Positions 18,135-33,376 of a stretch of 64,000 bases of DNA are shown here, one piece after another. Position numbers and translations under genes: made by a program. Within the stretch, counting starts at the first letter, position 1; every line of letters begins with the position of its first letter. The notes under the pieces were generated by a model. It saw only the letters and a list, made by a program, of their open reading frames with translations, had not been told where the DNA came from and made no database searches. This stretch comes from Pseudomonadota bacterium (GTDB lineage Bacteria; Pseudomonadota; Alphaproteobacteria; Rhodobacterales; Rhodobacteraceae). The DNA is taken from the NCBI GenBank assembly GCA_049323795.1, contig JBMOOH010000005.1:2261-66260 (forward strand), in the 5' to 3' direction.

Positions 18135-20819
<2,685 letters not shown>

Positions 20820-20838
20820 CCTTGATCCCTCTTCCACG

Positions 20839-21876
20839 TCACGTCTCCACTTCTTGCATGATGTTCGGCCGGTCCCGGCGCAGGGTCAAGCGCTCTTGCG
20901 GCGTGCGGGTTCGCCCTCGACCGCCGGCAGGGCAGATGCCATGGCGCGGGGTCCCGGCCGGTCCGGCCGGGATTTGACCGCCAGTCGCTGATCTCGTCCC
21001 CTCGGCCGCGGTCTGCACCGCCGTCCCGGACAGGGGCGCCTCGATGTGCATCCCGGCATCGACATGCAGCACTTCCCCGGTCACCGCGGCGGTGTAGTCG
21101 CTGGCCAGGAGCAGCGCCGCCCGGCCGACCTCGTCGGCCTCGATCCCGCGGCGCAGGGGCGCCGCCCGGGCACTCGCGTCCAGAAGCGAGGAGAGCCCGA
21201 TCAGGCCCGACGCGGCGCGCGTCGCCACCGGCCCGGCCGAGATCGCGTTGACGCGGATGGCCTGCGGGCCGAGTTCGTGGGCCAGATAGCGCACGCTGGC
21301 CTCGAGCGCCGCCTTGACCGGGCCCATGACGCTGTAGTGATCCACCACCCGCTCGGCACCGAGATAGCTGAGCGTGATCAGGCTACCGCCCGCGGCCATC
21401 AGGGGCTCGACCAGGCGCGCGATGCGGATGAAGGAATGCACCGATACGGTCATCGCCTCGGCGAAGCCTTCGGCCGAGCAATCGGTCAGCCGGCCCTGCA
21501 GATCCTCCGGCCGGACCTTGCCGACCGCGTGCAGCACGAAGTCGAGCCGCCCCCAGCGGTCGCGGATCGCGCCGAAGACCGCCTCGAGCCCGCCGGGCGC
21601 GGCAACGTCGCAGGGCATGAAGATCGCGGCCTCGACACGCTCGGCCAGCGGCGCGACATGGGCACGGGTGCGGTCGTTCACATGGGTCAGCGCCAGGTCG
21701 GCGCCCGCTTGGCGGAAATGCAGCGCGGCCGACCAGGCCAGGCTGCGGTCGTTGGCGATGCCGATGACCAGCCCCTTGCGGCCGCCGAGATCCAGCAGTT
21801 CGCGCGGATCGCAGCATTCCTCGAAACGAGGCCGGGGTGCCGGGGCCTGCCCGGCCGATGCGGTGGTCGTGCTCAT
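20839..21876 (-). CDS. enoyl-ACP reductase FabI-like SDR with an N-terminal and an approximately 60-aa C-terminal extension
   Basis: [14 protein letters not shown]...[30 protein letters not shown]...RVNAISAGP...HVDAG. The start ATG overlaps the pta stop (TGATG). Confidence 0.8.
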
Positions 21877-22907
21877 CAGGGTCCGGCTCCCGGCAGCGGA
21901 CAGCAGTCCGCCTCGGACGCAGGCGCGGCCGGCAGCGACCGCTGCGGCTCATCGCCGCGGGGCGTGCCGGAGCGGCCCGTCCGGTCCCTGCCGCTCAAGA
22001 GCACGGCCAGCGCCAGCGAGGCGATGCGGGTGTCCTCGGTGTCGGCGCGCGAGGTCAGCACCACCGGCGCGGCAAGCCCCAGGGCCACGCCCGCGGCCTT
22101 CGCCCCGGCCAGGTATTCCAGCGCCTTGGCCAGCACGTTGCCGCTGACCAGATCGGGAACGAGGAGGATGTCGGCGCGGCCCGCCACGTCCGACACGATC
22201 CCCTTCTCGGCCGCGGCCCGCGGCGACACCGCGTTGTCGAAGGCGAGCGGGCCGTCCACCACGGCCCCGGCGATCTGTCCGCGCCGGGCCATGAGCGTGA
22301 GGCTGGCGGCATCCAGCGTCGAGACCACGCCCGGCGTCACCGTCTCGACCGCCGAGACCACCGCGACGCGGGGCTCGGCGATCCCGAGCGCGTGAAAGGC
22401 ATCGACCGCGTTCTGGAGGATCTGCGCCTTGGCGGCGAGGTCGGGGGCGATGTTCACCGCGGCGTCGGTGACGCCGATCAGCCGGTCGTGGCCCGGCACC
22501 TGAAGCAGGAAGAGGTGGCTCACCCGCAGGCCCGGCAGCCGCAGCCCGGTCGCGGCGTCCAGCAGGACACGCATGAAGGTGTCGGTGTGCAGGTTGCCCT
22601 TCATCACCACGTCCGCCCTGCCCTCGCGCACCAGCCGGACGGCCAGAGCCGCGGCCCCCGCGTCCGGGGCGCTGTCATGCAGGCAGACGGCGTCGAGCGC
22701 CAGTCCGGCCGCGGCGGCCAGCGGCTCGATCTCGGCGCGCGGGCCGACCAGATGCGGCACGGCGAGACCCTCGTCCACCGCGCGGGCCATGGTCGCCAGC
22801 ACCACTTCCTGCGCGGCGTCGGCGACGGCGACACGCACCGGTCCCCGGGCGCGGGCGCGCATGATGAGGGCATCGAGCGAGGTTGCCGTCGCCATCTCGT
22901 CCATCAC
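21876..22907 (-). CDS. pta: phosphate acetyl/butyryltransferase (short PTA_PTB type)
   Basis: VVMKGNLHTDTFMRVLLD...LIGVTDAAVNIAPDL...SGNVLAKALEY. Start codon GTG 22907 or ATG 22904, overlapping the ackA stop. Confidence 0.8.
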   Translation of the reverse strand: MMDEMATATSLDALIMRARARGPVRVAVADAAQEVVLATMARAVDEGLAVPHLVGPRAEIEPLAAAAGLALDAVCLHDSAPDAGAAALAVRLVREGRADVVMKGNLHTDTFMRVLLDAATGLRLPGLRVSHLFLLQVPGHDRLIGVTDAAVNIAPDLAAKAQILQNAVDAFHALGIAEPRVAVVSAVETVTPGVVSTLDAASLTLMARRGQIAGAVVDGPLAFDNAVSPRAAAEKGIVSDVAGRADILLVPDLVSGNVLAKALEYLAGAKAAGVALGLAAPVVLTSRADTEDTRIASLALAVLLSGRDRTGRSGTPRGDEPQRSLPAAPASEADCCPLPGAGP

Positions 22908-24172
22908 GAGGCCTCCCTCGCCGGCTCGCTGCGCCCGCCACAGAGCCGCGCGACATGCGTGGCGATCATCGCTTCCTCGTCGGTCTGGCGCACCTCGACC
23001 GTCACGCCGGCGCCCGGCGCCGAGACGATCCGCCGGCCCCCGGCATTGGCCGCAGGATCGAGGTCGATCCCCAGATAGCCGAGCCCGGCACAGACCAGCG
23101 CGCGCACCGGCGCGGCGTTGGCACCGATGCCGCCGGTGAAGACCAGCCGGTCGATCCCTTCCAGCGGCGCGGTCAGCGCCACCAGATGGCGGCGGACATG
23201 ATAGCAGAAATAGCCGATCGCCTCGGCCGAGGCGGCATCGTGGCGCTCGATCAGGTCGCGCATGTCGCTGCTCTGTCCGGAAAGCCCGAGCAGGCCCGAG
23301 CCGGACATCAGCATCTCTCCGACCGATGCCGCCGTCATGCCGCGTTCCCGCATCAGGTGCAGCACGAGCCCGGGGTCCACATCGCCCGACCGGGTGCCCA
23401 TCGGCACGCCGGCAAGGGTCGAGAAGCCCATCGTCGTCTCGATCGACCGCCCGCCGCGGATCGCGGCGAGCGAGGCGCCATTGCCGAGATGGGCGACGAC
23501 GATCCGTTCGGAGGACAGATCCACGCCGTCCCGGGCCAGTGCCACCACGATGTATTCGTAGCTCAGCCCGTGATAGCCGTAGCGCCGCAGCTCGGGGGTC
23601 TCGATCGCCCGCGGCAGACCGGTCATCCGCGCCAGCCGCGGCAGGCCGTTGTGGAAGGCGGTGTCGAAACAGGCGATCTGAGGCAGGTCGGGCCGCAGTG
23701 AGGCGATGGCCTCGATCCCGTCGATGTTGGCCGGCAGGTGCAGGGGCGCCAGCGGCACCAGCGCGCGCAGCCGGTCCCGCAGCCCGGGCGTGACCGGAAC
23801 GGGGCAGTCGCAGTCCGGCCCGCCATGGGCGACGCGGTGCCCGACGCCGACGAGGGGGTGGCCGCCGCCTTCGGCGCGAACCGCCCTAAGCACGGCATCG
23901 AGCGCCGCACGGTGGCTGTCGAACCGGCCCGGGCGCGCGGTCGTCCCGGCCCCCTGCCCGGCCCCCTGCCCGGCCCCCTGCCCGGCCCCCCGCCCGGCGC
24001 CCCGCCCGGCGCCCAGCGGGCCGGTCATCGAGAGGCTGGCCTTGCCGCCCCCGATGCCGGTCACCGCGCCATGCGCAAGGCGCCCCTCGCCCCCGTCCGC
24101 GTCCGCGTCGAAGAGCGCGAACTTGAGGCTGGAGGATCCGGCATTCAGGACCAGGATCGCCGATCCGGTCAC
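22904..24172 (-). CDS. ackA: acetate (propionate) kinase, with an internal Gly/Ala/Gln/Arg repeat insertion
   Basis: ILVLNAGSSSLKFALFD...GHRVAHGG...YGYHGLSYEY...VVAHLGNGASL...LVFTGGIGANA. Likely GTG start at 24172, 2 nt after the upstream small ORF stop. Alternative ATG at 24199. Confidence 0.9.
   Translation of the reverse strand: MTGSAILVLNAGSSSLKFALFDADADGGEGRLAHGAVTGIGGGKASLSMTGPLGAGRGAGRGAGQGAGQGAGQGAGTTARPGRFDSHRAALDAVLRAVRAEGGGHPLVGVGHRVAHGGPDCDCPVPVTPGLRDRLRALVPLAPLHLPANIDGIEAIASLRPDLPQIACFDTAFHNGLPRLARMTGLPRAIETPELRRYGYHGLSYEYIVVALARDGVDLSSERIVVAHLGNGASLAAIRGGRSIETTMGFSTLAGVPMGTRSGDVDPGLVLHLMRERGMTAASVGEMLMSGSGLLGLSGQSSDMRDLIERHDAASAEAIGYFCYHVRRHLVALTAPLEGIDRLVFTGGIGANAAPVRALVCAGLGYLGIDLDPAANAGGRRIVSAPGAGVTVEVRQTDEEAMIATHVARLCGGRSEPAREAS
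23945..24016. repeat. 12-bp tandem repeat x6 (cccggccccctg and variants) inside ackA
   Basis: Units start at 23945, 23957, 23969, 23981, 23993 and 24005. The repeat is in frame and encodes GAGRGAGRGAGQGAGQGAGQGAG. Confidence 0.9.
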
Positions 24173-24173
24173 G

Positions 24174-24413
24174 TCATGGCCTCCTGTCCGGGGGTGCATC
24201 GCCCTCCGGCGGAGGATCGGTGTCGGCCGGGGTCTGCCCGGTCCCCCTGTGCGCGCCGGGTCCGTGATGGCCGGAATGGCCGCCCGCCCCCCCCCGCCCG
24301 CCGTGGCCGCCCCGTCCACCGTGGCCGCCATGGCCACCGTGCCCGAACAGGTGCATCGCGATCATCCCGCCGACGAGCAGCAGGATGAGCCAGTTGTCAT
24401 ATATCCACTGCAT
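24174..24413 (-). CDS. small membrane protein with a His/Gly-rich tail (DUF2933-like, from memory)
   Basis: MQWIYDNWLILLLVGGMIAMHLFGHGGHGGHGGRGGHGGRGGAGGHSGHHGPGAH... The ATG at 24413 is 3 nt after the DUF3141 stop, and the stop is 2 nt before the ackA GTG, so it is coupled on both sides. Confidence 0.65.
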   Translation of the reverse strand: MQWIYDNWLILLLVGGMIAMHLFGHGGHGGHGGRGGHGGRGGAGGHSGHHGPGAHRGTGQTPADTDPPPEGDAPPDRRP

Positions 24414-24416: not shown

Positions 24417-26222
24417 TCAGCCGCCCTTTCCGGAGGTGAGGTCGCCGGGCGGGGTGAAGACGGACCTGAACGCCAGTGCGACGGCAGTGTCGCGCGCCGT
24501 GCGCAGCGCACCGAGGCCCGCTCCGATCCGGTCCAGCGTCTCGCGTTCGGCCAAGATGGAGGGATGGTCGTCGGCCAGCGGCGCGCGGGTCCGGCGGACC
24601 GTGCCGGCCAGCATCTCGACCGAGCGCATCCATGGGTTGTAGCGCGCCGAGAACATCAGCCGGCTCCAGCGCATCGGATGGAGCGCGCGCAGCGCCTCGG
24701 CGCTGGCCGGTGTCGTCCAGGCCCGGATCCAGGGCCCCCAGAAGAGATCATAGGCCGCTCCGCCCAGGGCCGAGACCTGCGCGACCGTCTCCAATGCGCC
24801 CGAGGAGCTGACGGCGCCGAGGTCGGCGACATCGCGCTCCTCGAAGCGCACCACGTAGCCGGGCTTGCGGCAGTCGGGATCGCCGGTCGGATTGTCGATC
24901 TTCATTTCGTAGAGACCGGGCGCCAGCGCCTCGATCTCGCCCAGGCTGTCCAGGATCGCGCGGTGCTCGAACCGGGCCACCGCGGCCGAGACGAAGATGC
25001 CGAGATGGCCGACATGCGGATTGACGAGATAGACGATACGCTGGCCTGCGGCCTTCAGCGCGGCGGTGTCGGGATAGACCCTGGGGATCCAGCCCAGCGC
25101 CTGCGCCGGCGGGGTGATGTTGTCGCCCTCCGAGGCGAAGACCACGACCGGGCCGTGGATGCGGCGGAGGTCGGCCGAGCAGTCCTCGTCGATCCGCATC
25201 TCGCCGGTTTCCAGCTTGTTGCCGATGAAGAGGTTTTCGGTGATCGCGAGGATCTCCTCGCGGCTCAGCGTGTAGAAGCCGTTCCACCAGCGCTCGAAGT
25301 CGAGGAACCGGTCGCGCTCGGTGTCGACATGCGCGAAGAGATGGGCGTATTTCTCCCAGATCGCCTTTTCCGGCTGCAGCCCTTCGAAGTTCTGCGCCAG
25401 CCAGGCGCCGTCGAAACGGCCGTCCCCCAGGTCGGCCGCCATGTGCGCGGCCCAGACCCCGCCGGCCAGCGCGCCCATCATCCGCATCGGGCTGGTCTCG
25501 GGCGCGCCCGCCCAGTAGCTGAGCGGCGCGCCGTTCAGCACGACCGGACCGGCCAGACCCTCGCAGTCGGCCGCCAGCAGCGTCACCGCCCATCCGGCCT
25601 GGCAGTTGCCGTAAAGCACCGGCGGATGGTCGGGATGGCGCCTGGCGACCTCGGCCACGAAGCGGCGCAGGGCATGGTGGACATCGGCCAGCGTCTGGCC
25701 GGGTTCCGGCTCGGGGAAGAACATCACGAAATAGACGGGATGGCCCTCGTGCAGGGCGATGCCCAGTTCGCTGTCGCGCTTGAAACCGCCGATGCCCGGC
25801 CCGTGTCCCGCGCGCGGATCGAGCACGATCACCGGCGGCTTGGCCGGATCGACGCAATCGTCCCAGCAGGTGTCGCCAAGGCGCGTGATCCGGAGCAGCG
25901 CGTAGTTCGCGGGCGTCTCGAAGCGCCGCGCGTCGAGAAGCATCTCGCTGTCGAAGTCGAGCAGCGGCGGCATGCCCTGACGCTCGTGCTCGATCATGTT
26001 GTCGGCCCGAGCGCGCAGCGTGTCGAGAAACAGGATCCAGCGTTCGGCCAGATCCTTCGGATAGGAGGCTGCGGCTGTCGCCGCATCGCCGGCCCGCGCG
26101 GCCGTTGCGGCGGATGGCCTGGCGGCCGCCGATGTCGCGGCGGCCTGGGTGACGGCCGCCGGCATGGGCGCGGGCACCGGGGCGCGCCGCGTGGTCCTGT
26201 GATGCGTTCCCGTGGCGGTCAT
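24417..26222 (-). CDS. DUF3141 / 3-hydroxyalkanoate-synthetase-like alpha/beta-hydrolase protein
   Basis: 601 aa. It holds the 'orfA' position upstream of ackA/pta/fabI, as in the Sinorhizobium meliloti orfA-pta-ackA locus. The family was assigned from memory of this conserved neighbourhood and the overall sequence character. Confidence 0.65.
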   Translation of the reverse strand: MTATGTHHRTTRRAPVPAPMPAAVTQAAATSAAARPSAATAARAGDAATAAASYPKDLAERWILFLDTLRARADNMIEHERQGMPPLLDFDSEMLLDARRFETPANYALLRITRLGDTCWDDCVDPAKPPVIVLDPRAGHGPGIGGFKRDSELGIALHEGHPVYFVMFFPEPEPGQTLADVHHALRRFVAEVARRHPDHPPVLYGNCQAGWAVTLLAADCEGLAGPVVLNGAPLSYWAGAPETSPMRMMGALAGGVWAAHMAADLGDGRFDGAWLAQNFEGLQPEKAIWEKYAHLFAHVDTERDRFLDFERWWNGFYTLSREEILAITENLFIGNKLETGEMRIDEDCSADLRRIHGPVVVFASEGDNITPPAQALGWIPRVYPDTAALKAAGQRIVYLVNPHVGHLGIFVSAAVARFEHRAILDSLGEIEALAPGLYEMKIDNPTGDPDCRKPGYVVRFEERDVADLGAVSSSGALETVAQVSALGGAAYDLFWGPWIRAWTTPASAEALRALHPMRWSRLMFSARYNPWMRSVEMLAGTVRRTRAPLADDHPSILAERETLDRIGAGLGALRTARDTAVALAFRSVFTPPGDLTSGKGG

Positions 26223-26394
26223 GACGCGCTCCTTTCAGTTGTCATTGTTCGTCTGTCGCTTCTGACCGTCCCAAGCCCCGGCGTTGCGACGCCCGAGAGA
26301 CAGACGTATGCCGGGGTCGCACATTACAGCCGGTTCCCGTCGTGCCGGTCTCGCCCGGTCCGGCCCGGCTGCCCCCTCGATCCCGCCGAACGGG

Positions 26395-27554
26395 TCAACC
26401 GGGAGGTGCGGCTGCGGCCGGCCCGGGGCCCGGGTCGTAATCGCCGTGCCGGCACCAGACGCAGTCGCATTCCTCGTGTCTGCAGCTCGGATCGGCAAGC
26501 GGGGCACGCCAGTATCGCTGCGCGACCGGAAGCAACAGCCGTTTCAGCGGCGTGAGAGCATAGGCGCGGCGCAGGAGGTCGCCCGCGTCGCGCCGGCCCA
26601 GCCGACCGACAGCCAACCGAATCCCGGTCGCGCTCGCGGCAGTAGTGAAGATCCACCGGTTGACCAGGCCGGCCTTCAGCCCCGGGCCCAGGTCAGCCTG
26701 CCAGAGCGCGGCAAGTCGCCGCCGGCCAGGATGCTGCGGGCCGCCAGCACACCCGAGCGGATCGCATAGCGGATCCCGAAACCCGCCAGCGCATCCTGAA
26801 AGCCGGCATGTTCGCCGATCACCGGATGGCCGCCCTGCATTGCCGTGCGCGGCAGCCGGACATTGCCGTAGCCGCCGAATGGCCGGGGATTGCGCATCTC
26901 GAGGCCCGAATGGGTGCGGAACCACGCCTCTGCCGCGGCGACATGGCGCGCCTGGTCGCGGAAGCGGGCGAACATGCAGCTTGCCACCGTTCCCCGCCCG
27001 TTGTGCACGAGCAGATAGGCATAGCCACCGGGGGCCACGGCATCGCCGAGCGCCAGCCACGCGCCATCGGCCATGCCGGTCTCGAAGACGTGACCCGCTG
27101 CGATCACCGTGGCCTCGCGCGGCCCGGCGGCGAGAACACCGGCGCCGTCGAACGCGCGCACCCGGTCGCCGAAGCGGAGTTCGACGCCGGCTGCCTCGGC
27201 CTGCGCCGCCAGCCCGCGGTCGAGCGTGCCCGCCTCCGGCCCGCGGCGGACGAGGTAGAACAGCGGCCGCCTGCCGGTCACGTCGTGGCGCCTCCCGGTC
27301 GGATCGAAGACCGCCCCGCGGTCGACGCCGTGATACTCGAAACTGGCGGCGATGCCGGCCTCGGCCAGGTCGTCGAGCACGTCGGACCCGCGGCTCCAGT
27401 TCTCGATGCCCTGGAAGTCGTCGTGAAACCGATGGCCGACGCCGTGCTTCCATTCGCGCACCACCACGCGCGCGCCGCCCTTCGCCAGAACGATGGCACA
27501 GGCAAGCCCGGCGGGTCCTGCACCGACGACCGTGAGTGCGTCGTCACGGCGCAT
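26395..27554 (-). pseudogene. FAD-dependent oxidoreductase (geranylgeranyl-reductase-like) with an apparent 1-nt frameshift near 26713
   Basis: The N-terminal frame (26676..27554) has VVGAGPAGLACAIVLAKGGARVVV. After ...SILAGGD the coding-looking sequence (high GC3) continues in another frame as LAALWQADLGPGLKAGLVNRWIF...CRHEECDCVWCRHG to a stop at 26395. Confidence 0.6.
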
Positions 27555-27585
27555 GTTTGCAGCCTCCGTTCCCCCCGGCCCGGTG

Positions 27586-28434
27586 TCAGGCCACGGCGAG
27601 GATCACCAGACCCAGCCCCACCACGCTGCCGCCAAGGGCAAGCTTGACCCCGTCACGGTGGTGGAGGTTCCAGTGCGCCAGCCGGTTCAGCCCGGCGCGC
27701 GACGAGGCGGCAAGCAGGATGCCGACCAGGGGCAGGATGAACATCACGTTGTAGACCAGAAGATAGCCGTAGCTTTCGGTCAGGCCGGGCTGCAGCGCCA
27801 GAAGGCTGATGATCGCCAGATAGACCGCGCCCGAGCAGGGCACGGTGCACAGGCTGATCAGCGCGCCGAGGCCGAACATCGTGGCCGCCGAGGCCGCCCC
27901 GTCGGCCCCGCGCACGCGGCGCCCGACCCAGGCCGGCGCGGCAAGCCGCGGTCCGACACCGGGCAGGAAGTAGTCCTTCAGCATCCACAGGCCCAGCAAC
28001 ACCGACAGAAGCGCGCCGAGCCGCGCCCCGAAGTGGTTCTGCGCCAGCGTCGTCGAAATCTGCATCAGCCCGGCGCCCAGCACCAGATAGGCCAGGAAGA
28101 TCGCCAGAACGAAGGCGCCGCCGTTGCGCAACATGCGTCCGCGGACCTGCGACACGGCCGCAGGACCGGCATTGCCCGCCGTGGCCAGTAGCGCCGCGAT
28201 GAACAGCAAAAGCAGCGTGAACGAACAGGGATTGATCCCATCGGCAAGCCCGGCCAGGACGATCACGGGCAGCGTGATCTCGGGCCGCGTCAGAAGCCCG
28301 GCCATGCCGCCCTGGGGCGCGAGGCCCGTCGGCAGCCAGCCTGCGGCCAACGCGATTGCGATGGCACCAAGCGCCGCAAGCCCAAGGACTGCGGCCACGG
28401 GCCTGCGACGGAAACCCGGTATCGCCATTCTCAC
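27586..28434 (-). CDS. CcdA/DsbD-family thiol-disulfide-transfer membrane protein
   Basis: Polytopic membrane protein with the two TM cysteines typical of the family (GINPCSFTLL and LCTVPCSGAVY). GTG at 28434 overlaps the upstream stop; alternative ATG at 28428. Confidence 0.7.
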   Translation of the reverse strand: MRMAIPGFRRRPVAAVLGLAALGAIAIALAAGWLPTGLAPQGGMAGLLTRPEITLPVIVLAGLADGINPCSFTLLLLFIAALLATAGNAGPAAVSQVRGRMLRNGGAFVLAIFLAYLVLGAGLMQISTTLAQNHFGARLGALLSVLLGLWMLKDYFLPGVGPRLAAPAWVGRRVRGADGAASAATMFGLGALISLCTVPCSGAVYLAIISLLALQPGLTESYGYLLVYNVMFILPLVGILLAASSRAGLNRLAHWNLHHRDGVKLALGGSVVGLGLVILAVA

Positions 28435-28898
28435 GCCTCGACGATCAGTCGGCCGTTCATGTAGGGATTGGCTTTCCCCCCGCAGCAGACGTTGCAGTAG
28501 AAGCCGTAGGTGCCGGGCTTGTCCACGGTGAAGCTGACCAGCTGCTCGGAAAGCGGTCCCACCTTGAAATCGAGGCCAAGTTCCTCGCTGGCGAACTGGT
28601 GCCAGCCGCCGCCGTCCGAATGCAGCGAATTGTCACGGTTGACCAGGAGCAGACGGACCGGCTGTCCCGCCTTCACGGTCAGCACGTTCGGGGCAAAGCC
28701 GCTCATCGAGATGGAGACGGGCACGGCGTCGGCCGCGGCGCCGGACAGGTTCTGACGCAGCGCCGGCCACAGGAAGTAGCCGGCCGCACCGAGCGACCCG
28801 GCCGCGACGAGGCCGAAGGCGAGCAGGCTGCGCCGGGTGGGCCTGCCGGCGGTCGCGCCCGGGTGGCCGGGCCGGGCGTTCTTGGGGGCGGTGTTCAT
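28431..28898 (-). CDS. Tat-exported cupredoxin-fold protein with an atypical Cys-rich ligand loop
   Basis: RRSLLAFGLVAAG signal, then VLTVKAGQPVRLLLVNRD...PGTYGFYCNVCCGGKANPYMNGRLIV. ATG at 28898 has a GGAGAT SD. An alternative ATG at 28976 overlaps the upstream stop (ATGA). Confidence 0.7.
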   Translation of the reverse strand: MNTAPKNARPGHPGATAGRPTRRSLLAFGLVAAGSLGAAGYFLWPALRQNLSGAAADAVPVSISMSGFAPNVLTVKAGQPVRLLLVNRDNSLHSDGGGWHQFASEELGLDFKVGPLSEQLVSFTVDKPGTYGFYCNVCCGGKANPYMNGRLIVEA

Positions 28899-28972
28899 GG
28901 ATGTTCGATCTCCGGTTGGGGCGTCGGTCGGGCTGGAGGCAGCCGCCCGTGGCCGGGTGGCCGCCGCTGCGC

Positions 28973-29725
28973 TCATCCAATTGACGCAGCACGGCGCGAC
29001 AGATTACGGGGGCGTTCGGCCACGACGACCTGGTAGAGCCCGCCGAGACAGCGCCGCTCGCGCCAGCGGAAATGTCCGGACGCAGAGGCGAGCGACGCGA
29101 TCGGCGTGCGCCACATTTCGGCGGCAAAGGGCTCCAGCAGGCGAAACACCGCGCCCATCACCGGCCGGAGCGGGTTCCAGGCGGCGGGCCGCGCGTAATC
29201 GACGAAAACCGCCCGCCCGCCCGGCTCGACACGGGCGAGGGCGGCATCGACCGCCCGCCGCTTGTGGGCGGGGGGCAGTTCGTGCAGCAGGAAAAAGACC
29301 AGGATCGCATCGTAGGCGACGTCATGGCCGGAGGCGCCCGGGTCCGCGGCATCCGCCTGATGCACCCGTGCGTTGGAGAACCGGCGCAGTTTGCGCGCGG
29401 TGTTGGCGACCTGGATCGGCGCGATGTCGATCACGTCCAGCGCCCCGTGCGGGCCGAGGCGCGCAGCCAGCCGTTGCGACAGGTCGCCATAGACGCAGGC
29501 GACCTGAAGGACCCGGTCCCCGGGCGCGACTTCGGCGAGGGCGGCGTCCGTCAGGCGGCGATACTGGCCCCACAGGATCGCCGATGCCATTGCGGTGCGA
29601 TCGAAGACGCGAAGGCTGGCGGGCCGCAGATAGGCCCACCGGTAGTGCCGTTCGAGATAATCGGGAAGGCCGGCCGGTGCAGTGTCTGCCCCGGCCAGGT
29701 CCGGCACTTCGCCCCCGTCAGCCAC
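28973..29725 (-). CDS. class I SAM-dependent-methyltransferase-fold protein with RquA-like motif I (candidate rhodoquinone biosynthesis enzyme)
   Basis: DYLERHYRWAYL...VLQVACVYGDLSQRLAARLGPHGALDVIDIAP...ILVFFLLHELP...GGRAVFVDY. Motif I is LQVACVYG instead of LDxGxGxG (Asp to Gln, Gly to Val). Confidence 0.6.
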   Translation of the reverse strand: MADGGEVPDLAGADTAPAGLPDYLERHYRWAYLRPASLRVFDRTAMASAILWGQYRRLTDAALAEVAPGDRVLQVACVYGDLSQRLAARLGPHGALDVIDIAPIQVANTARKLRRFSNARVHQADAADPGASGHDVAYDAILVFFLLHELPPAHKRRAVDAALARVEPGGRAVFVDYARPAAWNPLRPVMGAVFRLLEPFAAEMWRTPIASLASASGHFRWRERRCLGGLYQVVVAERPRNLSRRAASIG

Positions 29726-30473
29726 GCGCTCGGCTTCCCAGGAAGCCGAGCGCGACGATCGCGACCGCTCCGGCGACGAAGACCCAGAGCATCCAGGTCG
29801 GCAGGTAGAAGGTCATGTAGACTTCCCAGCCGAGCCAGCCCAGGCTTTTCGTCACCAGTGACGGCGTCCCGTTCAGCGATCCGCCAAGCGTGCCGGTGAT
29901 CGTCACCACGGCGGTCCCGATCAGGGTCAGCAGGAAAGTGACCCAGCGCTGCGCCCCGTCGAAGAGATGCTGCCGGAAGCGGTAGCCGAGGATGCCCATC
30001 ACCGTCCAGTAGCTGAGCGTCCAGGTCGCCAGCATGATGTGGTTGCGCCCCAGCGGCGATTCCGTGATCGCCGACCAGGGATAGATCGACAGCCCCAGCC
30101 CATAGGCCACGACGCCCGAGAGCGAGCCCAGCAGGATCAGCGGCCAGACCGACTTCTGCAGCCGCACCGCCAGATCGGAGTCCGAGAAGACCCGGAAAAA
30201 GATGAAGAGCGCGGCAGTCAGCCACAGCGCGATCGGGAAATGCACCACCAGGATGTGATAGACTGGGCTGATCGAGAAGCGCGGCGCGCCTTCCAGCGCG
30301 ACCGGCACCCCGCCAGCCTGGCTGCTGGCCAGCGCGGCTCCGACGGTTGCGGCCAGCGCGCCTGCGGCAAGCAGGGCCCTGCGTGCCGTCATGTCGAAGA
30401 TCCGAAGTCCTTGCATGGGTCGATCCTTGCTCTGTGCGGGGCTGGCGATCCGGATTGGGTTGCTGCGGGTCAT
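29718..30473 (-). CDS. DUF2231-like integral membrane protein (possible haem-binding)
   Basis: Multi-TM protein with VVHFPIALWL and later conserved-looking His residues. ATG at 30473 overlaps the upstream stop (ATGA). Alternative starts at 30416 and 30392 (Tat-like MTARRALLAAGA). Confidence 0.55.
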   Translation of the reverse strand: MTRSNPIRIASPAQSKDRPMQGLRIFDMTARRALLAAGALAATVGAALASSQAGGVPVALEGAPRFSISPVYHILVVHFPIALWLTAALFIFFRVFSDSDLAVRLQKSVWPLILLGSLSGVVAYGLGLSIYPWSAITESPLGRNHIMLATWTLSYWTVMGILGYRFRQHLFDGAQRWVTFLLTLIGTAVVTITGTLGGSLNGTPSLVTKSLGWLGWEVYMTFYLPTWMLWVFVAGAVAIVALGFLGSRARG

Positions 30474-31858
30474 CTGAGGTCCTCCTGGCGCCGGTAGAGC
30501 AGCAGCATCGAGATGCCGAGCGCGGCGATCAGGCCCACGCTCGCGGCCAGCGTCCACAGCCATTGCCGCTTGATTTCCTTGGCGAACTCGACTTCGACGC
30601 CATAGAGCGCGAGTTGCCGCTCGGAGTGGCGGTAGGCGACCGGCACGCGCTGCGCGATCTTGTCGGCGCCCGGGTGCTGACGCGGATCGACCAGACGCGA
30701 CCAGCTGACCTGGCCGGGGTAGAAGACCGTCATCTCGGTCCACGGCCCGCTCCAGTCGGGCTGCCCCGGCTGGGAGCGCTGCACCGAGATCTGCCCCGGG
30801 GCGTCAAGGCCGAGCGAGACCGGCAGGGAAATGTAGTGCCAGCGCATGGTCGAGGAATTGCGGAATACCGCGAAGGCGAGATCGTAGCTGCCGCCTTCGC
30901 GGAAGATCTTGTCCTCCAGGGGATCGCCCGTATCCATCGCCCGCTGCAGCGTCACGTCCCAGTAGCCGTCGCTCCAGCGCGCGGCCTGCGGCATCACGAT
31001 GTCGCCGCGCGACCCGCCGGCAGCGCGCAGAACCTGCGCCGGCAGGGTGTCGCCCTCCTTCCAGCCGGCATTGGGGTCGAAGGGCACGGCCGCGGATTCG
31101 GCCAGGAAATAGGGCGCGTCGAAGCTGACCGTGCCTGCGGCCACTTCCTCCGCCGTCACCTTCCCGGCACCGGCGGCACCCGGCGCGAACATGAAGCGCG
31201 GCTGTCCGGTCGCCTCGTCGAAGTTCGAATCGTAGGGCGCAGTGCCGCTGTCTTCCTCGCGCGCCGCGCTGACAGAAGTGTCGTCAGCCTGCGCCAGGGG
31301 ATTGGTGCGGGCCGACTTCCAGTCCCAGAGGTCCAGGAAATACCCCGCCTTGCGCAGGTCGAGCAGCTCGTTCCCGGGGCGGACCGTCTCGAACTTGTTC
31401 GGATCGGTCCGGGTCTGCGGGAGGTACTTGCTGCGCTCCTCCGCGGTTTCGGGCACGCCGGTGAAGCTCGTCAGCCCGTCGCCGATGGTGATGTAGCCGC
31501 CATAGCGCGAGAACAGCGGCACCGAGCCGTCGTCCACCATCATCGCCACCCGGTCCTCGATCAGCCGGTCGGGGTCGGACCCGAGTTCCTCGCCCTCGCG
31601 CAGGGACCATTTGCCGCCCTCGTAGACCAGCAGGTTGTTGACGAGGTTCGGCTGTTCCGCCGGCCAGCGGTAGCGGAACCAGATCGACTGGCCGTCATAG
31701 GCGACCTTCACCTGCAGGGTGCTGGTCAGTTCCTTCGGGATCGCGATGTTTCGTTCGGGGTCATCGCCGATGATGCCGGTGCGGTGGTTGACCCAGGCGG
31801 CCACCAGAAGCCCGGTGAAGATGACCGACGCCGCGGCAAGATAGGGCAGTCTTCGCAT
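30470..31858 (-). CDS. EB_dh (ethylbenzene-dehydrogenase gamma-like, DOMON-related) haem-domain protein with N- and C-terminal membrane anchors
   Basis: QVKVAYDGQSIWFRYRWP...FLDLWDWKSARTNP...YWDVTLQRAM...FAVF. ATG at 31858 with a GAGGAG SD. C-terminal TM segment WLWTLAASVGLIAALGISMLLLY. Confidence 0.65.
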   Translation of the reverse strand: MRRLPYLAAASVIFTGLLVAAWVNHRTGIIGDDPERNIAIPKELTSTLQVKVAYDGQSIWFRYRWPAEQPNLVNNLLVYEGGKWSLREGEELGSDPDRLIEDRVAMMVDDGSVPLFSRYGGYITIGDGLTSFTGVPETAEERSKYLPQTRTDPNKFETVRPGNELLDLRKAGYFLDLWDWKSARTNPLAQADDTSVSAAREEDSGTAPYDSNFDEATGQPRFMFAPGAAGAGKVTAEEVAAGTVSFDAPYFLAESAAVPFDPNAGWKEGDTLPAQVLRAAGGSRGDIVMPQAARWSDGYWDVTLQRAMDTGDPLEDKIFREGGSYDLAFAVFRNSSTMRWHYISLPVSLGLDAPGQISVQRSQPGQPDWSGPWTEMTVFYPGQVSWSRLVDPRQHPGADKIAQRVPVAYRHSERQLALYGVEVEFAKEIKRQWLWTLAASVGLIAALGISMLLLYRRQEDLR

Positions 31859-31974
31859 TGCTGTGCGCTCCTCTGCTTGGTCACGGACACGGGAACGCAC
31901 ACGATGCCGGCGCGGGTCGCGCCGACGGTCGGCCGACCCCGGACGAAGACATAGACGCAGATTTTCCCGATTCC

Positions 31975-32352
31975 TTACAGAGCCTGCCGCATGCCGGCGT
32001 CCGCGGCCGCATCCGGCGTGCCGCAGCCGCAGGCGGGGGTTTGATCCCGGCCCTCCTCGGCGCCGCCCGTCTGGCACAGCCCGAGGGCCATCAGCACCGC
32101 GATGTCGCGCCGGATCTCCATCAGCATCGCCGCGGCCTCGCCGGGATCGAGGCCGAGGTCGGACGTCGCCTCGGCAAGCGTCTGCCCCTTGATGTCGCAG
32201 CGCAGGAACAGATCGCGGCGGAGCCGGACGGCGCGGCGCTGGGCCTCGGGCAGGCAGGCGCAGAACAGTGAATTCAGGACGGCACGGAACTCGGCATCGA
32301 CCTGCAACTCGTCGTCGAGGCCGGAACAGGACTCCTCCCTAGCGTTCGTCAT
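31975..32352 (-). CDS. small sigma-70-region-4-like HTH protein with Cys pairs (CAC, CGC)
   Basis: 125 aa: ...LFCACLPEAQRRAVRLRRDLFLRCDIKGQTLAEATSDLGLDPGEAAAMLMEIRRDIAVLM...PACGCG... ATG at 32352 with a purine-rich SD. No family recognised. Confidence 0.45.
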   Translation of the reverse strand: MTNAREESCSGLDDELQVDAEFRAVLNSLFCACLPEAQRRAVRLRRDLFLRCDIKGQTLAEATSDLGLDPGEAAAMLMEIRRDIAVLMALGLCQTGGAEEGRDQTPACGCGTPDAAADAGMRQAL

Positions 32353-32437
32353 GTGCTCTCTCTCCCTGGCTGATCGGCGCAAAGGCCGTTCAGCCCGGGA
32401 GACGCTCCGGCGGCGCCCCCATTACCAATGGCTGGGC

Positions 32438-33070
32438 TCAGGTGGCGTCCACGTCGTCGCACCGGGTCTGGTGCTCGACGTTCTCGCAGCCGCCGGGCAT
32501 GCAGGAACAATCGTCGAAGCCATGCTGGCAGCAGGGACCGCAATGGCCGACCAGCAGGTCGCGGAGCGCCTTGCGGGCGCGGTGGAGGCGCACCGCCAGC
32601 GTACCCGGCCGGATGCCGAGATCGGCGGCGACCGCGGCATGGTCCGCGAGGCCGAGGTCGATCCGCCGGATCAGGTCGGCGTCGGCGGGGCGCAGTCCGG
32701 GAACCAGTCCCCTGATGCAGCCGCAGACCAGATCCATCGCCTCGGGCGCGTCCACCGCGTCTCCGACCGCCGCCATCTCCTGCGCGAAGGCCTCGTCCAG
32801 CCGGCGCCGGCGCCCTGCCTTGCGGAAATGATCGTTGAGCGTCGAACGCAGGACCGCGTAGAGCCACGCATCGAGGCGCTCGGCATTGCGCAGCTGCTCG
32901 TGGCGGGTGAGCACCCGGATGCAGAATTCCTGCAGCACGTCCTCGGCGTCGGCGCGATTGCCGAGCCTCTTCACGAGAAACCGGAGAAACGCGCTGCGTC
33001 CGCTGGTCAGCGGCCGCTGGATCGCGGCGTTGCCGGAGACGGCCCCTGTTCCTGCCTGCTTCGCATCCAT
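32438..33070 (-). CDS. ECF sigma factor with linker CxC and a C-terminal Cys-rich domain (CorE-like, ECF44-type)
   Basis: Region 2 (DAEDVLQEFCIRVL...LDAWLYAVLRSTLNDHFR) and region 4 (LRPADADLIRRIDLGLADHAAVAADLGIRPGTLAVRLHRARKAL). LVCGCIRG lies between the regions, and the tail is HCGPCCQHGFDDCSCMPGGCENVEH. ATG at 33070. Confidence 0.8.
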   Translation of the reverse strand: MDAKQAGTGAVSGNAAIQRPLTSGRSAFLRFLVKRLGNRADAEDVLQEFCIRVLTRHEQLRNAERLDAWLYAVLRSTLNDHFRKAGRRRRLDEAFAQEMAAVGDAVDAPEAMDLVCGCIRGLVPGLRPADADLIRRIDLGLADHAAVAADLGIRPGTLAVRLHRARKALRDLLVGHCGPCCQHGFDDCSCMPGGCENVEHQTRCDDVDAT

Positions 33071-33210
33071 GTTCAACGCCTCTCTGGTCCCGAGCGCGGA
33101 TCCGCCGGTGCGCGTCAGCCGATCAGGGCGGACCATGCCTTGCGCGGGCGACTCGCGTCATGATGTAGATCAAGCATCCTGCGCAGGGCAACAGGCCGTC
33201 ATCCCCGGGG

Positions 33211-33257: not shown

Positions 33258-33376
33258 GGGCCGGCACGCCCGGTCAGGCACCCGCCCCCCGCCCCTCGGC
33301 ACGTGTCCGGGTGAATGCAGCCCGGCGGCCCTGCAAGGCCGTCGCCCTCGCCGCGCCGTCCGGCCGGAAGGCGCGG

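Follow-up and report, generated by a model that had tools for sequence, protein, structure and literature searches.

A conserved gene set of marine Alphaproteobacteria that appears to be controlled by a Cys-rich CorE-type sigma factor through one common promoter motif

CorE-type sigma factors are Cys-rich and have no recognisable anti-sigma factor, and in CorE and CorE2 activation by metal goes through a CxC and a Cys-rich tail. The CorE-like (ECF44) group is defined by two features, a CxC placed between sigma2 and sigma4.2 and a Cys-rich domain at the C-terminus (PMC4937300, PMC8999054); within it, CorE2 answers to Cd/Zn and not to Cu, the specificity being set by one Cys (PMC4937300). RquA, the enzyme of rhodoquinone biosynthesis which acts on ubiquinone, needs O2 and a reductant in vitro, and the authors of that work expect another oxidant in vivo (PMC9814641). 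We describe here a 64-kb stretch of DNA (the window) in which genes of these two kinds stand in one cluster. The initial annotation knew of no characterised system of this composition, and we found no description of one in the literature.

The genes of the run

All the genes of the cluster are on the minus strand, as established from the open reading frames and their junctions (Table 1). The initial annotation had reported a co-directional run of eight genes with overlaps, ending at 26395. The run is real and the coordinates of its first seven genes hold, but it goes on for another ~8 kb, through DUF3141, ackA, pta and fabI, to a copper P1B-ATPase at 18135.

The sigma factor contains Sigma70_r2 (8e-12) and Sigma70_r4_2 domains (Pfam); its best NCBIfam match, under the cutoff, is SigZ, which belongs to ECF238 (PMC7826278). 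It has both defining features of a CorE-like factor, as had been proposed: CGC in the sigma2-sigma4 linker and a Cys-rich C-terminal tail with 7 Cys, HCGPCCQHGFDDCSCMPGGCENVEHQTRC. The CxC and the Cys-rich domain are kept in an alignment of 7 orthologues, and they may serve metal activation here as they do in CorE and CorE2; because CorE2 takes Cd/Zn and a single Cys sets the metal specificity, copper is the less certain as inducer. The name "sigma4-like" given to the 125-aa product of the next gene is a weak assignment: its match to Sigma70_r4_2 has E=0.025, BLASTP aligns it at 2e-4 with the C-terminal half of the sigma factor, and a sigma2 domain is absent from it. This protein, which bears an N-terminal FCxC and a C-terminal CxC, is comparable to M. 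xanthus MXAN_0974. Its gene lies directly 3' of the sigma gene in three of the compared loci (L007, L011 and L013), and tblastn matches to it occur in L002, L004 and 7 metagenome loci.

Membership of the 462-aa protein in the EB_dh family is borne out (Pfam, 1e-43). Residues 3-25 form an N-terminal helix, residues 426-455 anchor the C-terminus in the membrane, and relatives of the protein are encoded in 344 genome loci. The best Foldseek matches of its AlphaFold model (pLDDT 82.9) are NxrC (7b04_C) and EbdC (2ivf_C), both at E about 2e-7. It has thus the fold of these haem-b subunits, but the canonical ligands are not evident: the haem ligand Met108 of EbdC aligns to Leu168, and the CxxCH of a distant relative (L118) aligns to GYITIG. 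Haem binding, which had been presented as a property of the family, is putative in this variant. M106, M223 and H341 are invariant, H395 and H411 nearly so. The L118 homologue (34% identity, E 1e-58) has two CxxCH motifs; next to it come a NapC/NirT tetrahaem quinol dehydrogenase, in the place of DUF2231, and then RquA. On Azospirillum plasmid p4, one CDS annotated as a NapC/NirT cytochrome c includes an EB_dh-like stretch.

The ATG of the DUF2231 gene overlaps the EB_dh stop codon (ATGA). Its product scores 26.2 bits against the Pfam profile, just below the gathering score of 26.4, but homologues contain the domain; distant profile matches reach 50-70 bits, and clustering at 50% identity leaves only 107 representatives of the subfamily. 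The protein combines an N-terminal helix bearing a Tat-like RR and 5 TM helices, with H73, H78 and H145 invariant and a Ser at position 199. By a moderately confident model (pLDDT 68.9; no fold match in the PDB) and the positive-inside rule, these His residues are placed at periplasmic helix ends. The rquA gene overlaps this gene by 8 nt. Its product, annotated as an RquA-like SAM enzyme, is a bona fide RquA: against the equivalog it scores 290 bits (1e-86; cutoff 175), and D118 and D143, essential in R. rubrum RquA, correspond to conserved D100 and D125 with the same 25-residue spacing. Hence, the initial annotation was right in expecting a quinone-modifying activity.

The cupredoxin, whose Pfam assignment held, has an RR (Tat-like) signal and a C-x2-C-C...M loop and weakly resembles the NosZ CuA domain (NCBIfam); aligned with 5 orthologues it reads FYCG[IV]CCGGKANPYMHG, the window copy having N for the last H. 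Overlapping it by 4 nt is the gene of a membrane protein described as CcdA/DsbD-type, which is a divergent relative of that superfamily only. It has neither a Pfam match, even at E<=10, nor a PDB match, but among 35 homologues 10 match DsbD_TM (best 6.6e-9), 3 DsbD_2 and 15 SfLAP, the DsbD_TM and DsbD_2 matches coming only from homologues at 50-57% identity. NCBI and JGI label its relatives as CcdA family, and C70 (NPC) and C196/C200 (CTVPC) are invariant. The FAD oxidoreductase is not the single open reading frame that had been reported. The length of the interval is not a multiple of 3, and a 1-nt frameshift near 26713 splits the gene into an N-terminal part (26676-27554) and a C-terminal part in another frame (26395 to about 26700). 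The L080 homologue is one intact 387-aa frame, with which tblastn changes frame in the window; one base added near 26713 restores a 386-aa frame. The protein has a C-terminal CxHxxCxCxWCxHG motif and weakly matches FAD_binding_3 and the geranylgeranyl-reductase family.

In the last part of the run, the Acetate_kinase match begins at residue 135 of the ackA frame, whose real start codon probably lies 3' of 24337; pta overlaps the ackA stop by 4 nt. The copper ATPase, with three HMBD metal-binding domains, is 66-75% identical to ATPases encoded directly upstream of EB_dh in L016, L017 and L019-L022.

Table 1. Genes and promoter motif copies of the cluster, in window coordinates
Feature	Position	Strand	Basis
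CorE-type (former ECF44 / ECF238-like) ECF sigma factor	32438..33070	-	Pfam, NCBIfam, orthologue alignment
Weak motif copy GGTAATG-N-GCGTCT	32401..32426	-	PWM 12.0, within shuffled range (maxima 8.8-15)
125-aa sigma4-like Cys protein	31975..32352	-	BLASTP, Pfam, conservation
Exact motif copy TGTAAG-N16-GCGTCT	31954..31979	-	PWM 23.8
462-aa EB_dh-family periplasmic beta-sandwich protein	30470..31858	-	Pfam, AlphaFold, Foldseek
DUF2231 membrane protein	29718..30473	-	Pfam, adjacency to EB_dh, His pattern
RquA, rhodoquinone biosynthesis enzyme (ubiquinone to rhodoquinone)	28973..29725	-	NCBIfam NF038261 equivalog
Strong motif copy CGTAAT-N17-CGTCA	28983..29008	-	PWM 19.4, above all 20 shuffles (maximum 15.0)
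Cupredoxin-fold protein	28431..28898	-	Pfam Cupredoxin_1 6.5e-14
Divergent CcdA/DsbD-superfamily polytopic membrane protein	27586..28434	-	Homologue profile matches
FAD-dependent oxidoreductase, frameshifted	26395..27554	-	Two frames, tblastn with L080
Exact motif copy TGTAATG-N-ACGTCT, best in window	26303..26328	-	PWM 26.1
DUF3141 protein (601 aa)	24417..26222	-	Pfam DUF3141 4.8e-197
Acetate/propionate kinase (ackA)	22904..24337	-	Pfam Acetate_kinase 1.8e-96; TIGR00016 317 bits, cutoff 293
Phosphate acetyl/butyryl transferase (pta)	21876..22907	-	PTA_PTB 1.3e-45; NF006045 361 bits, cutoff 282
Enoyl-ACP reductase FabI	20839..21876	-	adh_short_C2 1.2e-79; NF005717 363 bits, cutoff 337
Copper-translocating P1B-type ATPase	18135..20837	-	E1-E2_ATPase and HMBD x3; TIGR01511 588 bits, cutoff 397

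A promoter motif common to the units

An ECF-type motif, TGTAAY-N17-CGTCT, precedes the transcription units. Four copies are found in the cluster, two exact, one strong and one inside the background score; by pattern match, the 2 exact copies compare with 0.04 expected in the 64-kb window. The top four PWM scores of the whole window all belong to the cluster, where each copy reads in the direction of the genes and precedes a start codon, the background being given by 20 shuffled sequences (maxima 8.8-15.0). The weak copy comes right after the sigma stop codon, upstream of the sigma4-like gene, at a position which exact copies occupy in L004, L007, L011, L087, L095 and L123. The next copy lies ~95 nt before the EB_dh ATG, and its -35 element shares bases with the stop codon of the small Cys protein. 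The strong copy falls within the 3'-terminal part of rquA, ~85 nt ahead of the cupredoxin start codon (ATG at 28898), and L008 has an equivalent site before its cupredoxin gene. The best copy is 81 nt upstream of the DUF3141 ATG, and DUF3141 is preceded by the same motif in L003, L004 and L123.

The motif is specific to the strand and to the clade. The genome loci of the clade (401 kb) contain 34 copies on the gene strand versus 5 on the other, and those of a sister clade without the sigma gene (899 kb) contain 0 versus 1. In an independent metagenome set, loci of the cluster type (141 kb) give 36 versus 2, and the other rquA loci (312 kb) 0 and 0. Judged by this co-occurrence, the sigma factor of the window most likely directs RNA polymerase to these promoters. 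The PWM finds no copy upstream of the sigma gene itself in the window, and five loci (L003, L014, L015, L048 and L080) have the motif and no sigma gene within 10 kb.

A constant pair and its variable company

We compared 24 genome loci of clade A, 55 of clade B and 19 RquA-seeded metagenome contigs; since loci are often incomplete, the frequencies are lower bounds. The EB_dh and DUF2231 genes are adjacent in 79 of the 79 genome loci. The eight genes are not the fixed unit that had been suggested, but contain this constant core, which is kept together well beyond chance. Only in one clade, a marine one, do RquA, the sigma factor, the flavoprotein and other proteins accompany the core; there, RquA follows the pair in 18/19 of the metagenome contigs. 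Jannaschia helgolandensis DSM 14858 and Allgaiera indica DSM 24802 are among the carriers. A canonical order comes back in L084-L100 and L123: sigma, sigma4-like, His-rich protein, EB_dh, DUF2231, rquA and EF-hand-like protein, followed either by cupredoxin and CcdA-like or by FAD, CMAS and DUF3141. The flavoprotein gene neighbours rquA in many loci, and DUF3141 orthologues are near the cluster in L003, L004, L017, L111, L117 and L123. Clade B, which holds most of the pairs, has neither rquA nor the sigma gene, and its neighbourhoods vary. In 7 clade-A loci an orthologue of the copper ATPase immediately precedes EB_dh, and 6 clade-B loci contain P1B ATPases; other neighbours of the pair include the cupredoxin, a YHS-domain ABC ATPase and, in clade B, a periplasmic Cu/Zn superoxide dismutase. 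Two-component systems also occur beside clade-B pairs, and they are not specifically of the heavy-metal type.

A proposed regulon for metal stress and its rivals

Our reading, of moderate confidence, is that a CorE-type sigma factor governs a conserved regulon whose core is this region; induced by metal, probably copper, the regulon would remodel the quinone pool and periplasmic redox chemistry. The metal would bind the CxC and the Cys-rich tail and activate the factor, and four minus-strand units would then be read from the motif copies: the sigma4-like gene, behind the weak copy; the EB_dh, DUF2231 and rquA genes; the cupredoxin, CcdA-like and flavoprotein genes, the last one frameshifted in the window; and the genes from DUF3141 to the copper ATPase. 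The ATPase would pump Cu(I) from the cytoplasm, RquA would turn ubiquinone into low-potential rhodoquinone, and Pta and AckA would supply substrate-level ATP. The membrane pair would face the periplasm, the EB_dh-like domain on its C-terminal helix and the DUF2231 His ring at the membrane edge, and might carry electrons to or from the quinone pool, with, for example, copper ions, the cupredoxin or the thiol system as its partner in the periplasm. Both the observation and the interpretation of the initial annotation are in this way upheld in part.

That independent, unrelated units merely happen to be neighbours is very improbable. A co-directional run by itself is ordinary, gene order varies among genomes, the flavoprotein gene is disrupted in the window, and cupredoxin and CcdA-like genes are rare accessories (2/24 genome loci, 3/19 metagenome loci). 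The conservation across genomes and the common promoter motif are not ordinary: rearrangement notwithstanding, dozens of genomes and contigs have the same families together, and the motif upstream of the units is specific to strand and clade. Harder to dismiss, yet still doubtful, is a role in copper handling without redox chemistry (sequestration, delivery or transport, with the ATPase, the cupredoxin-like protein and the His-rich secreted protein), in which the DUF2231 His cluster and conserved His, Met and Lys of the EB_dh protein would bind copper directly and rquA would be a passenger of one clade. The neighbours (CopA-type ATPase, cupredoxin, YHS-domain, Cu/Zn-SOD) fit this, as do the invariant and nearly invariant residues of EB_dh, the lack of evident canonical haem ligands, and the three invariant DUF2231 His, joined by H199 in clade B, at the modelled helix ends. 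NnrS is a haem- and copper-containing membrane protein, and one distant DUF2231 member resembles it weakly (4e-5, below the cutoff). However, the structural matches of the EB_dh protein that reach significance are all to haem electron-transfer subunits, its relatives bear CxxCH and pair or fuse with NapC/NirT quinol dehydrogenases, and the repeated independent linkage to rquA sits poorly with a protein that only binds metal.

This linkage also speaks for another possibility, which we consider unlikely: a rhodoquinone-centred anaerobic module whose Cys-rich sigma factor senses redox or oxygen and not metal, the copper genes being bystanders. The pair, with or without the flavoprotein, would be the redox partner of RquA in vivo without O2, in line with the oxidant other than O2 expected there (PMC9814641), or a periplasmic terminal reductase which oxidises rhodoquinol. 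One can notice that rquA lies 3' of DUF2231 in separate lineages (clade A; L099, L109 and L110) and that the NapC/NirT variant (L118 and L122) is a third separate linkage. In all rquA-linked DUF2231 proteins Ser replaces the fourth His, and the L099/L109 lineage has also lost H78; rquA and the flavoprotein gene adjoin even without EB_dh nearby (L016, L117); ackA and pta, behind the same motif, fit an anaerobic lifestyle; and the Octadecabacter copy comes after a nuo-like operon, adjoining cox genes. Against this stand the CorE/CorE2 metal-sensing signatures of the sigma factor, the ATPase orthologue found repeatedly directly beside EB_dh, and the pairs without rquA in the available DNA (11/24 clade-A and 55/55 clade-B loci). 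Moreover, rquA relatives below about 52% identity never occur with the pair, which means that RquA does not generally need it, and RquA alone reportedly makes rhodoquinone in E. coli and yeast.

The metal-induced regulon, which we prefer, brings together an unexpected combination: two uncharacterised membrane proteins facing the periplasm, RquA, fermentation genes of the acetate-kinase route and a pump that exports copper, in a gene set conserved in marine Alphaproteobacteria. If this reading is true, these bacteria would switch their quinone pool and envelope redox chemistry when metal threatens respiration.

Conservation of the gene cluster

The initial annotation had described eight co-directional genes in the window, and seven of them are indeed intact minus-strand open reading frames, from 33070 down to 27586, at the coordinates that it assigned. 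Their junctions are as it described them: an ATGA shared by the EB_dh and DUF2231 genes, an 8-nt overlap of the DUF2231 gene and rquA, and 4 nt shared by the cupredoxin gene and the membrane-protein gene after it. The eighth, read at first as a single gene for an FAD oxidoreductase, did not hold as such: it occupies two reading frames, and an intact orthologue aligns in one frame, then in another. Adding one base near 26713 restores an ORF of 386 aa. As there is no long homopolymer at the frameshift, we are dealing either with a real pseudogene or with an assembly error.

Genes, motif copies and other features of the window (window coordinates)
Feature	Position	Strand	Remark
Sigma factor gene	32438-33070	(-)	
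Sigma4-like Cys protein gene	31975-32352	(-)	125-aa product
EB_dh gene	30470-31858	(-)	
DUF2231 gene	29718-30473	(-)	
rquA	28973-29725	(-)	
Cupredoxin gene	28431-28898	(-)	
CcdA-like gene	27586-28434	(-)	
Flavoprotein (FAD) gene	26395-27554	(-)	frameshifted
DUF3141 gene	24417-26222	(-)	
ackA	22904-24337	(-)	
pta	21876-22907	(-)	
fabI	20839-21876	(-)	
Cu P1B ATPase gene	18135-20837	(-)	
Motif copy	31979-31954	(-)	exact; overlaps the sigma4-like stop codon; 95 nt upstream of EB_dh
Motif copy	26328-26303	(-)	exact; 81 nt before the start of the DUF3141 gene
Motif copy	29008	(-)	within the 3' end of rquA; 85 nt before cupredoxin; PWM 19.4, above all 20 shuffles (max 15.0)
Motif copy	32426	(-)	after the sigma stop codon; PWM 12, within background; exact copies at the same position in relatives
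G/C-run tract (C10, G6, G5)	33215-33262	(-)	hairpin potential; peptide-ABC ATPase/sigma intergenic spacer of 300 nt
Flavoprotein frameshift	26677-26755	(-)	most likely near 26713
EB_dh segment DWS..FYPGQ..W..H..ADK	30659-30766		residues ~365-400
DUF2231 position 199	29877-29879		Ser

Genomes, one per species, were scanned with an alignment of EB_dh homologues as seed; 344 loci were found and 79 were kept. The gene directly after EB_dh encodes a DUF2231 protein in 79/79 loci (Alpha-, Beta- and Gammaproteobacteria), and we call these two genes the pair. Clade A designates the 24 loci with EB_dh identity of at least 56%, from marine Rhodobacterales and Hyphomicrobiales, and clade B the other 55 (46-52%). 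In clade A, where many contigs are cut and all counts are lower bounds, we found rquA in at least 13 loci, the sigma gene in 9, the sigma4-like gene in 5, the flavoprotein in 10, a cyclopropane-fatty-acid (CFA) synthase in 10, an EF-hand-like protein in 12, a secreted His-rich protein in 8, DUF3141 in 3 and the P1B ATPase in 7. Clade B has the pair alone, plus a P1B ATPase in 6 loci. Cupredoxin and CcdA-like genes occur together in 2 genome loci only.

We then have a reverse test, a metagenome scan seeded with RquA. Wherever RquA of at least 59% identity comes with upstream DNA, DUF2231 and EB_dh genes stand directly upstream in all (18/19 contigs); RquA relatives below ~52% identity (~45 contigs) have the pair upstream in none. 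The usual order is sigma, sigma4-like, His-rich, EB_dh, DUF2231, rquA, EF-hand-like, then cupredoxin and CcdA-like or flavoprotein, CFA synthase, DUF3141. The genes proposed to form a unit are conserved together elsewhere, in the genome scan and in the metagenome scan alike, though with the pair alone as a constant core.

Two small secreted proteins of the relatives (L084-L097, L007, L013 and others, where L-numbers denote related genome or metagenome loci) are absent from the window: the His-rich one (~170 aa), encoded directly upstream of EB_dh, and the EF-hand-like one (~100 aa), encoded after rquA. Searches of Pfam and NCBIfam gave no match for either. Clade-B neighbourhoods vary, with MacB-type ABC systems, OmpR-type two-component systems, periplasmic Cu/Zn superoxide dismutase or Fnr and HemN-like genes; on five clade-B metagenome contigs (L165-L169) the pair comes directly after the superoxide dismutase gene and near genes for an Fnr/Crp regulator and a radical-SAM protein which may be HemN-like. 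Such neighbours fit, but do not fix, a general envelope-stress role.

The window has ~70% G+C; within it, the cluster (26000-33000) is at 0.67-0.69 and the neighbouring stretch 20000-24500 at 0.72-0.745. Together with the integrase and IS21 genes that flank the copy of Octadecabacter sp. SW4 (CP042819.1, L080, 1-9288), this dip hints at lateral mobility of the cluster. The Octadecabacter copy is rquA-less; its EB_dh, DUF2231 and flavoprotein genes come immediately behind a nuo-like operon, seemingly without separate NuoE, NuoF and NuoG, and COX1, COX2 and Cu-oxidase_2 follow on the other strand.

The sigma factor and the promoter motif

The sigma factor matches Sigma70_r2 of Pfam (45 bits), Sigma70_r4_2 slightly below its gathering score (21.7 bits for 25.7) and the sigma70-ECF model TIGR02937 (53 bits, cutoff 42.9). 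Its best NCBIfam match, below the cutoff, is SigZ (78 bits), a member of ECF238, the group which absorbed the former ECF44 (PMC7826278). CorE-like factors are recognised by a CxC between sigma2 and sigma4.2 and by a C-terminal Cys-rich domain of ~20-38 residues (PMC4937300); they act without an anti-sigma factor, CorE being activated by copper and CorE2 by Cd/Zn (PMC4937300, PMC8999054). In the window protein, the linker between sigma2 and sigma4.2 reads VCGCIRGL, with C[GSNA]C kept in 9 aligned orthologues, and the Cys-rich C-terminal tail, HCGPCCQHGFDDCSCMPGGCENVEHQTRC, contains 7 Cys; the pattern conserved among orthologues is HCGxCCxHGF[DE]DCSCPPxGCEH. The description of this protein as a CorE-like ECF factor is supported by its sequence, both elements being present and conserved.

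We compared it with CorE and CorE2 of Myxococcus xanthus (formerly ECF44, now within or near ECF238). Common to them are the two-domain ECF organisation, the CxC linker, the Cys-rich C-terminus, the proximity of metal-homeostasis genes, including a P1B ATPase, and, as far as the adjacent genes show, the lack of a recognisable anti-sigma gene. They differ in the arrangement of the tail cysteines, in the hosts, which are myxobacteria for CorE and CorE2 and marine Alphaproteobacteria here, and in the putative targets: EB_dh/DUF2231, rquA, CcdA-like and DUF3141-ackA-pta, and in relatives CFA synthase, would all be new for a CorE-type factor. Going by its sequence, the window sigma factor is a further member of this known kind.

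No gene for a ZAS-type or membrane anti-sigma factor adjoins the sigma gene; it is followed instead by that of the conserved Cys protein, which displays FCxC and, besides a sigma4-like helix-turn-helix, CxC at its C-terminus. The sigma4-like label that this protein had received is justified to the extent that similarity to sigma4 is detected, but the similarity is weak. M. xanthus has MXAN_0974, in which a sigma4.2-like region is combined with a Cys-rich domain and nothing else (PMC4937300), to which the window protein appears to be a comparable companion.

A dyad search of the intergenic regions of relatives yielded the motif TGTAAY-N17-CGTCT. Its architecture is the classic one for ECF factors, the -35 element being AAC-like and the -10 element containing CGT. 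The window contains 2 exact copies when 0.04 are expected, and the top four sites of the whole 64 kb for a PWM built from the relatives all lie inside the cluster and on the gene strand. The motif occurs 34 times on the gene strand and 5 times on the other strand of clade-A genome loci (401 kb searched), 0 and 1 times in clade B (899 kb), 36 and 2 times in cluster-type metagenome loci (141 kb), and on neither strand of the other rquA metagenome loci (312 kb); the metagenome loci played no part in the motif discovery. Copies stand 5' of the sigma4-like, cupredoxin, flavoprotein, CFA synthase and DUF3141 genes and, in many loci, of the His-rich/EB_dh unit and the EF-hand-like gene. From this co-occurrence we infer that the motif is recognised by the sigma factor encoded next to it.

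CorE reportedly affects its own expression, whereas the PWM finds no copy in the 300-nt spacer 5' of the window sigma gene, and a dyad search restricted to sigma upstream regions found nothing. Two relatives (L002 at ~1089, L004 at ~7240) have on the opposite strand a copy facing away from the sigma gene, which suggests that the divergent gene belongs to the same regulon. Scanning for sigma-70 promoters returned 0 sites, there is no convincing intergenic terminator within the cluster, and neither Rfam families nor tRNAs were found in the window.

The pair, RquA and the other putative redox proteins

The EB_dh protein matches its Pfam family well (1e-43, 150 bits, gathering score 33.3). In its AlphaFold model (pLDDT 82.9), a large beta-sandwich is preceded by an N-terminal helix and followed by a C-terminal membrane helix and then a basic tail, and its sole significant fold matches in the PDB (Foldseek, E ~2e-7, probability 1.0) are the haem-b subunits NxrC (7b04_C) and EbdC (2ivf_C). 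With these gamma subunits of the type II DMSO-reductase family it shares the EB_dh domain and the beta-sandwich, but it is roughly double their length, contains large insertions and has its own N- and C-terminal membrane helices. Conservation of their Met/Lys haem ligands is not evident in it: M108 of EbdC aligns with L168, and K201 falls, where the alignment is weak, 2 residues past the invariant R339-W340-H341. The family of EbdC and NxrC is encoded with molybdoenzyme alpha and beta subunits, whereas we found no molybdopterin alpha or Fe-S beta genes around the window cluster or among the recurrent neighbour families. Because these catalytic subunits are absent, we ruled out a subunit of an ethylbenzene-dehydrogenase-type enzyme; the NCBIfam EbdC model gives 19.5 bits for a cutoff of 400.

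Metagenome contig Ga0066644_10000086 (L118, 3816-6651), and also L122, carries a three-gene array: an EB_dh gene with two CxxCH, a NapC/NirT tetrahaem cytochrome gene and rquA. The L118 EB_dh protein (34% identity, E 1e-58) is without the C-terminal anchor. Its CxxCH aligns with GYITIG of the window protein, so any cofactor in the latter must be held differently. The DWS..ADK segment, C-terminal in the window protein, is N-terminal in that of L118 (3816-5183), a swap which resembles a circular permutation. A search of plasmids with the EB_dh protein gave one distant match only. Plasmid p4 of Azospirillum brasilense Sp7 (NZ_CP012918.1, L164, 6041-7663) has a single 540-aa CDS, annotated NapC/NirT cytochrome c, with an EB_dh-like stretch; it is flanked by two cytochrome-D1-domain genes and is next to a plastocyanin/azurin gene.

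The DUF2231 protein of the window scores 26.2 bits for a gathering score of 26.4 (PF09990), a domain carried by most close homologues, and distant profile matches score 50-71 bits. The subfamily has 107 representatives at 50% identity. Among 1.84 billion representatives searched, every member proved to stand alone, and there were no informative fusions; two members are extended at the N-terminus by unannotated sequence, and a third is probably a chimera of gene calling. The invariant His are H73 and H78 (YHxxxVHFP) and H145 (GRNH). Position 199 (compared in loci L001-L083) is Ser in every clade-A protein, the window included, and in complete clade-B proteins it is His in 51/57, Tyr in 2 and Asn in 1; a third rquA-linked lineage (L099, L109) has lost H78 as well. 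Judging from the model helices and the positive-inside rule, the four His positions would sit at periplasmic helix ends. If DUF2231 holds a cofactor, His side chains would be its ligands. Since the fold has no significant match in the PDB (best E 0.44), a likeness to cytochrome b561 or NarI is unsupported.

The order EB_dh, small membrane protein, rquA is the same in L118 as in the window, with the difference that the membrane protein of L118 is a NapC/NirT tetrahaem cytochrome, while DUF2231 lacks CxxCH and resembles NapC/NirT neither in sequence nor in fold. The Azospirillum CDS likewise brings together a NapC/NirT annotation and an EB_dh-like stretch. DUF2231 thus sits where L118 has a quinol dehydrogenase, and this is our main reason for thinking that the pair may exchange electrons with the quinone pool. 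In eukaryotes, the CYBDOM proteins are a cytochrome b561 fused to a DOMON domain; like the pair, they combine a His-rich helical membrane module with an extracytoplasmic beta-sandwich of the DOMON superfamily, but we detected no sequence or fold relation between DUF2231 and cytochrome b561. The pair is uncharacterised: for DUF2231/PF09990 the literature gave two unrelated papers only, and nothing relevant was found on EB_dh together with copper, nor on rhodoquinone together with copper or with ECF factors.

The product of rquA had been described as an RquA-like SAM enzyme. That it is a quinone enzyme stands, but the description was too weak: the equivalog model NF038261 gives 290.2 bits, far above its cutoff of 175, over positions 1-218 of 218. 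D100 is invariant and D125 near-invariant, and they are 25 residues apart, so that, by spacing, they may correspond to the essential D118/D143 of Rhodospirillum rubrum RquA. We identify the window protein, by its equivalog score, as RquA, which would convert ubiquinone to rhodoquinone. In a published analysis of its gene context, rquA was found close to respiratory complexes and unlinked to hypothetical or quinone genes (PMC5953543); here, by contrast, a distinct RquA subclade (at least 55-59% identity) is embedded downstream of the pair, in a cluster with ECF-type motifs. In Alterinioella nitratireducens (L009, 6933-7337) rquA is seemingly truncated to a 135-aa ORF, which suggests decay of the gene in some carriers.

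The cupredoxin matches Cupredoxin_1 (6.5e-14, 52 bits, gathering score 27). Its loop reads C-x2-C-C-x7-M-(H/N), with His after Met in orthologues and Asn in the window, and neither canonical set of ligands (His, Cys, His, Met; or CuA H...C-x3-C-x3-H-x2-M) was found in the window protein. The CcdA/DsbD assignment of the next protein can be kept in part. C70 (NPC) and C196/C200 (CTVPC) are invariant across 35 sequences, with the two membrane Cys in (N/V)PC; 10/35 homologues (50-57% identity) match DsbD_TM, at best with 6.6e-9. The window protein itself has no Pfam match at E<=10 except SfLAP (3.3), and nothing in the PDB by sequence or profile searches. As DsbD_TM is matched by homologues and not by the window protein, we consider the latter a distant member of the CcdA/DsbD superfamily. 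The copper-tolerance system ScsABCD of Salmonella uses a DsbD-family membrane reductase under copper stress, but unlike in Scs, no thioredoxin-fold partners are encoded beside the CcdA-like gene.

Copper, rhodoquinone and the proposed regulon

On the 3' side of the motif copy that precedes DUF3141 lie five minus-strand genes with touching or overlapping ends, for DUF3141, acetate/propionate kinase, phosphate acyltransferase, FabI and a Cu-translocating P1B ATPase with three HMBD domains (TIGR01511, 588 bits, cutoff 397). This ATPase is 66-75% identical to those whose genes immediately precede EB_dh in L016, L017 and L019-L022, and DUF3141, ackA and pta recur next to the cluster in L003, L004 and L111. 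Therefore, the same families travel together in different orders. The two-component systems located by clade-B pairs, considered as CopRS/CusRS, fall below the NCBIfam cutoffs of the heavy-metal subfamilies (best matches OmpR and QseC), and so we did not use them as evidence for copper.

The reading that we favour is that a metal, probably copper, would trigger a CorE-type regulon which would export copper, install a periplasm-facing quinone-linked redox pair and convert ubiquinone to rhodoquinone, while Pta and AckA would add substrate-level phosphorylation. Respiration and Fe-S enzymes being copper targets, rhodoquinone and acetate formation would make energy conservation less dependent on both. 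Beyond gene content, conservation and motif, these functional steps are ones that we infer. The main rival reading puts rhodoquinone first: the sigma factor would sense redox state, and the pair or the flavoprotein would be the in-vivo redox partner of RquA or a rhodoquinol oxidase. Three independent linkages to rquA with correlated His losses speak for it, as does the fact that RquA in vitro requires O2 and a reductant, although rhodoquinone serves anaerobic metabolism, and that another oxidant is expected in vivo (PMC9814641); the CorE signatures of the sigma factor, the linkage to the ATPase and the many pairs without rquA speak against it. After it comes the reading of the pair as a non-redox copper binder. 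A chance juxtaposition of the genes is effectively excluded.

One can go as far as to propose that a CorE-type sigma factor and copper, rather than anoxia, switch on rhodoquinone synthesis, and that the co-transcribed pair forms with the flavoprotein a new quinone-linked periplasmic redox branch, either as the O2-independent oxidant or reductant partner of RquA or as a rhodoquinol:periplasmic-acceptor oxidoreductase replacing a NapC/NirT-type quinol dehydrogenase; we hold this whole proposal to be improbable. We classify the system as a putative metal-responsive ECF regulon with unprecedented effectors. The initial annotation knew of no characterised system of this composition, and we likewise found no literature in which the pair, rquA and ackA-pta share one ECF motif with a copper pump.

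These results bear on two questions, the regulation of rquA and the in-vivo source of the redox partner of RquA. A distinct RquA subclade is placed with defined ECF-type motifs, a sigma factor of metal-sensor type at the head and candidate redox partners alongside, and hence both questions become testable in cultured strains, among them the carriers Jannaschia helgolandensis DSM 14858 (L013) and Allgaiera indica DSM 24802 (L003). DUF2231 and the long membrane-anchored EB_dh proteins, which look like an obligate pair across at least 344 bacterial species genomes, receive a first functional context, and CorE-type sigma factors are extended beyond myxobacteria, with a predicted promoter and regulon. 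The linkage would surprise specialists in quinones or in ECF sigma factors. If the copper link is true, bacteria would respond to the poisoning of respiration by metals with a change of the quinone.
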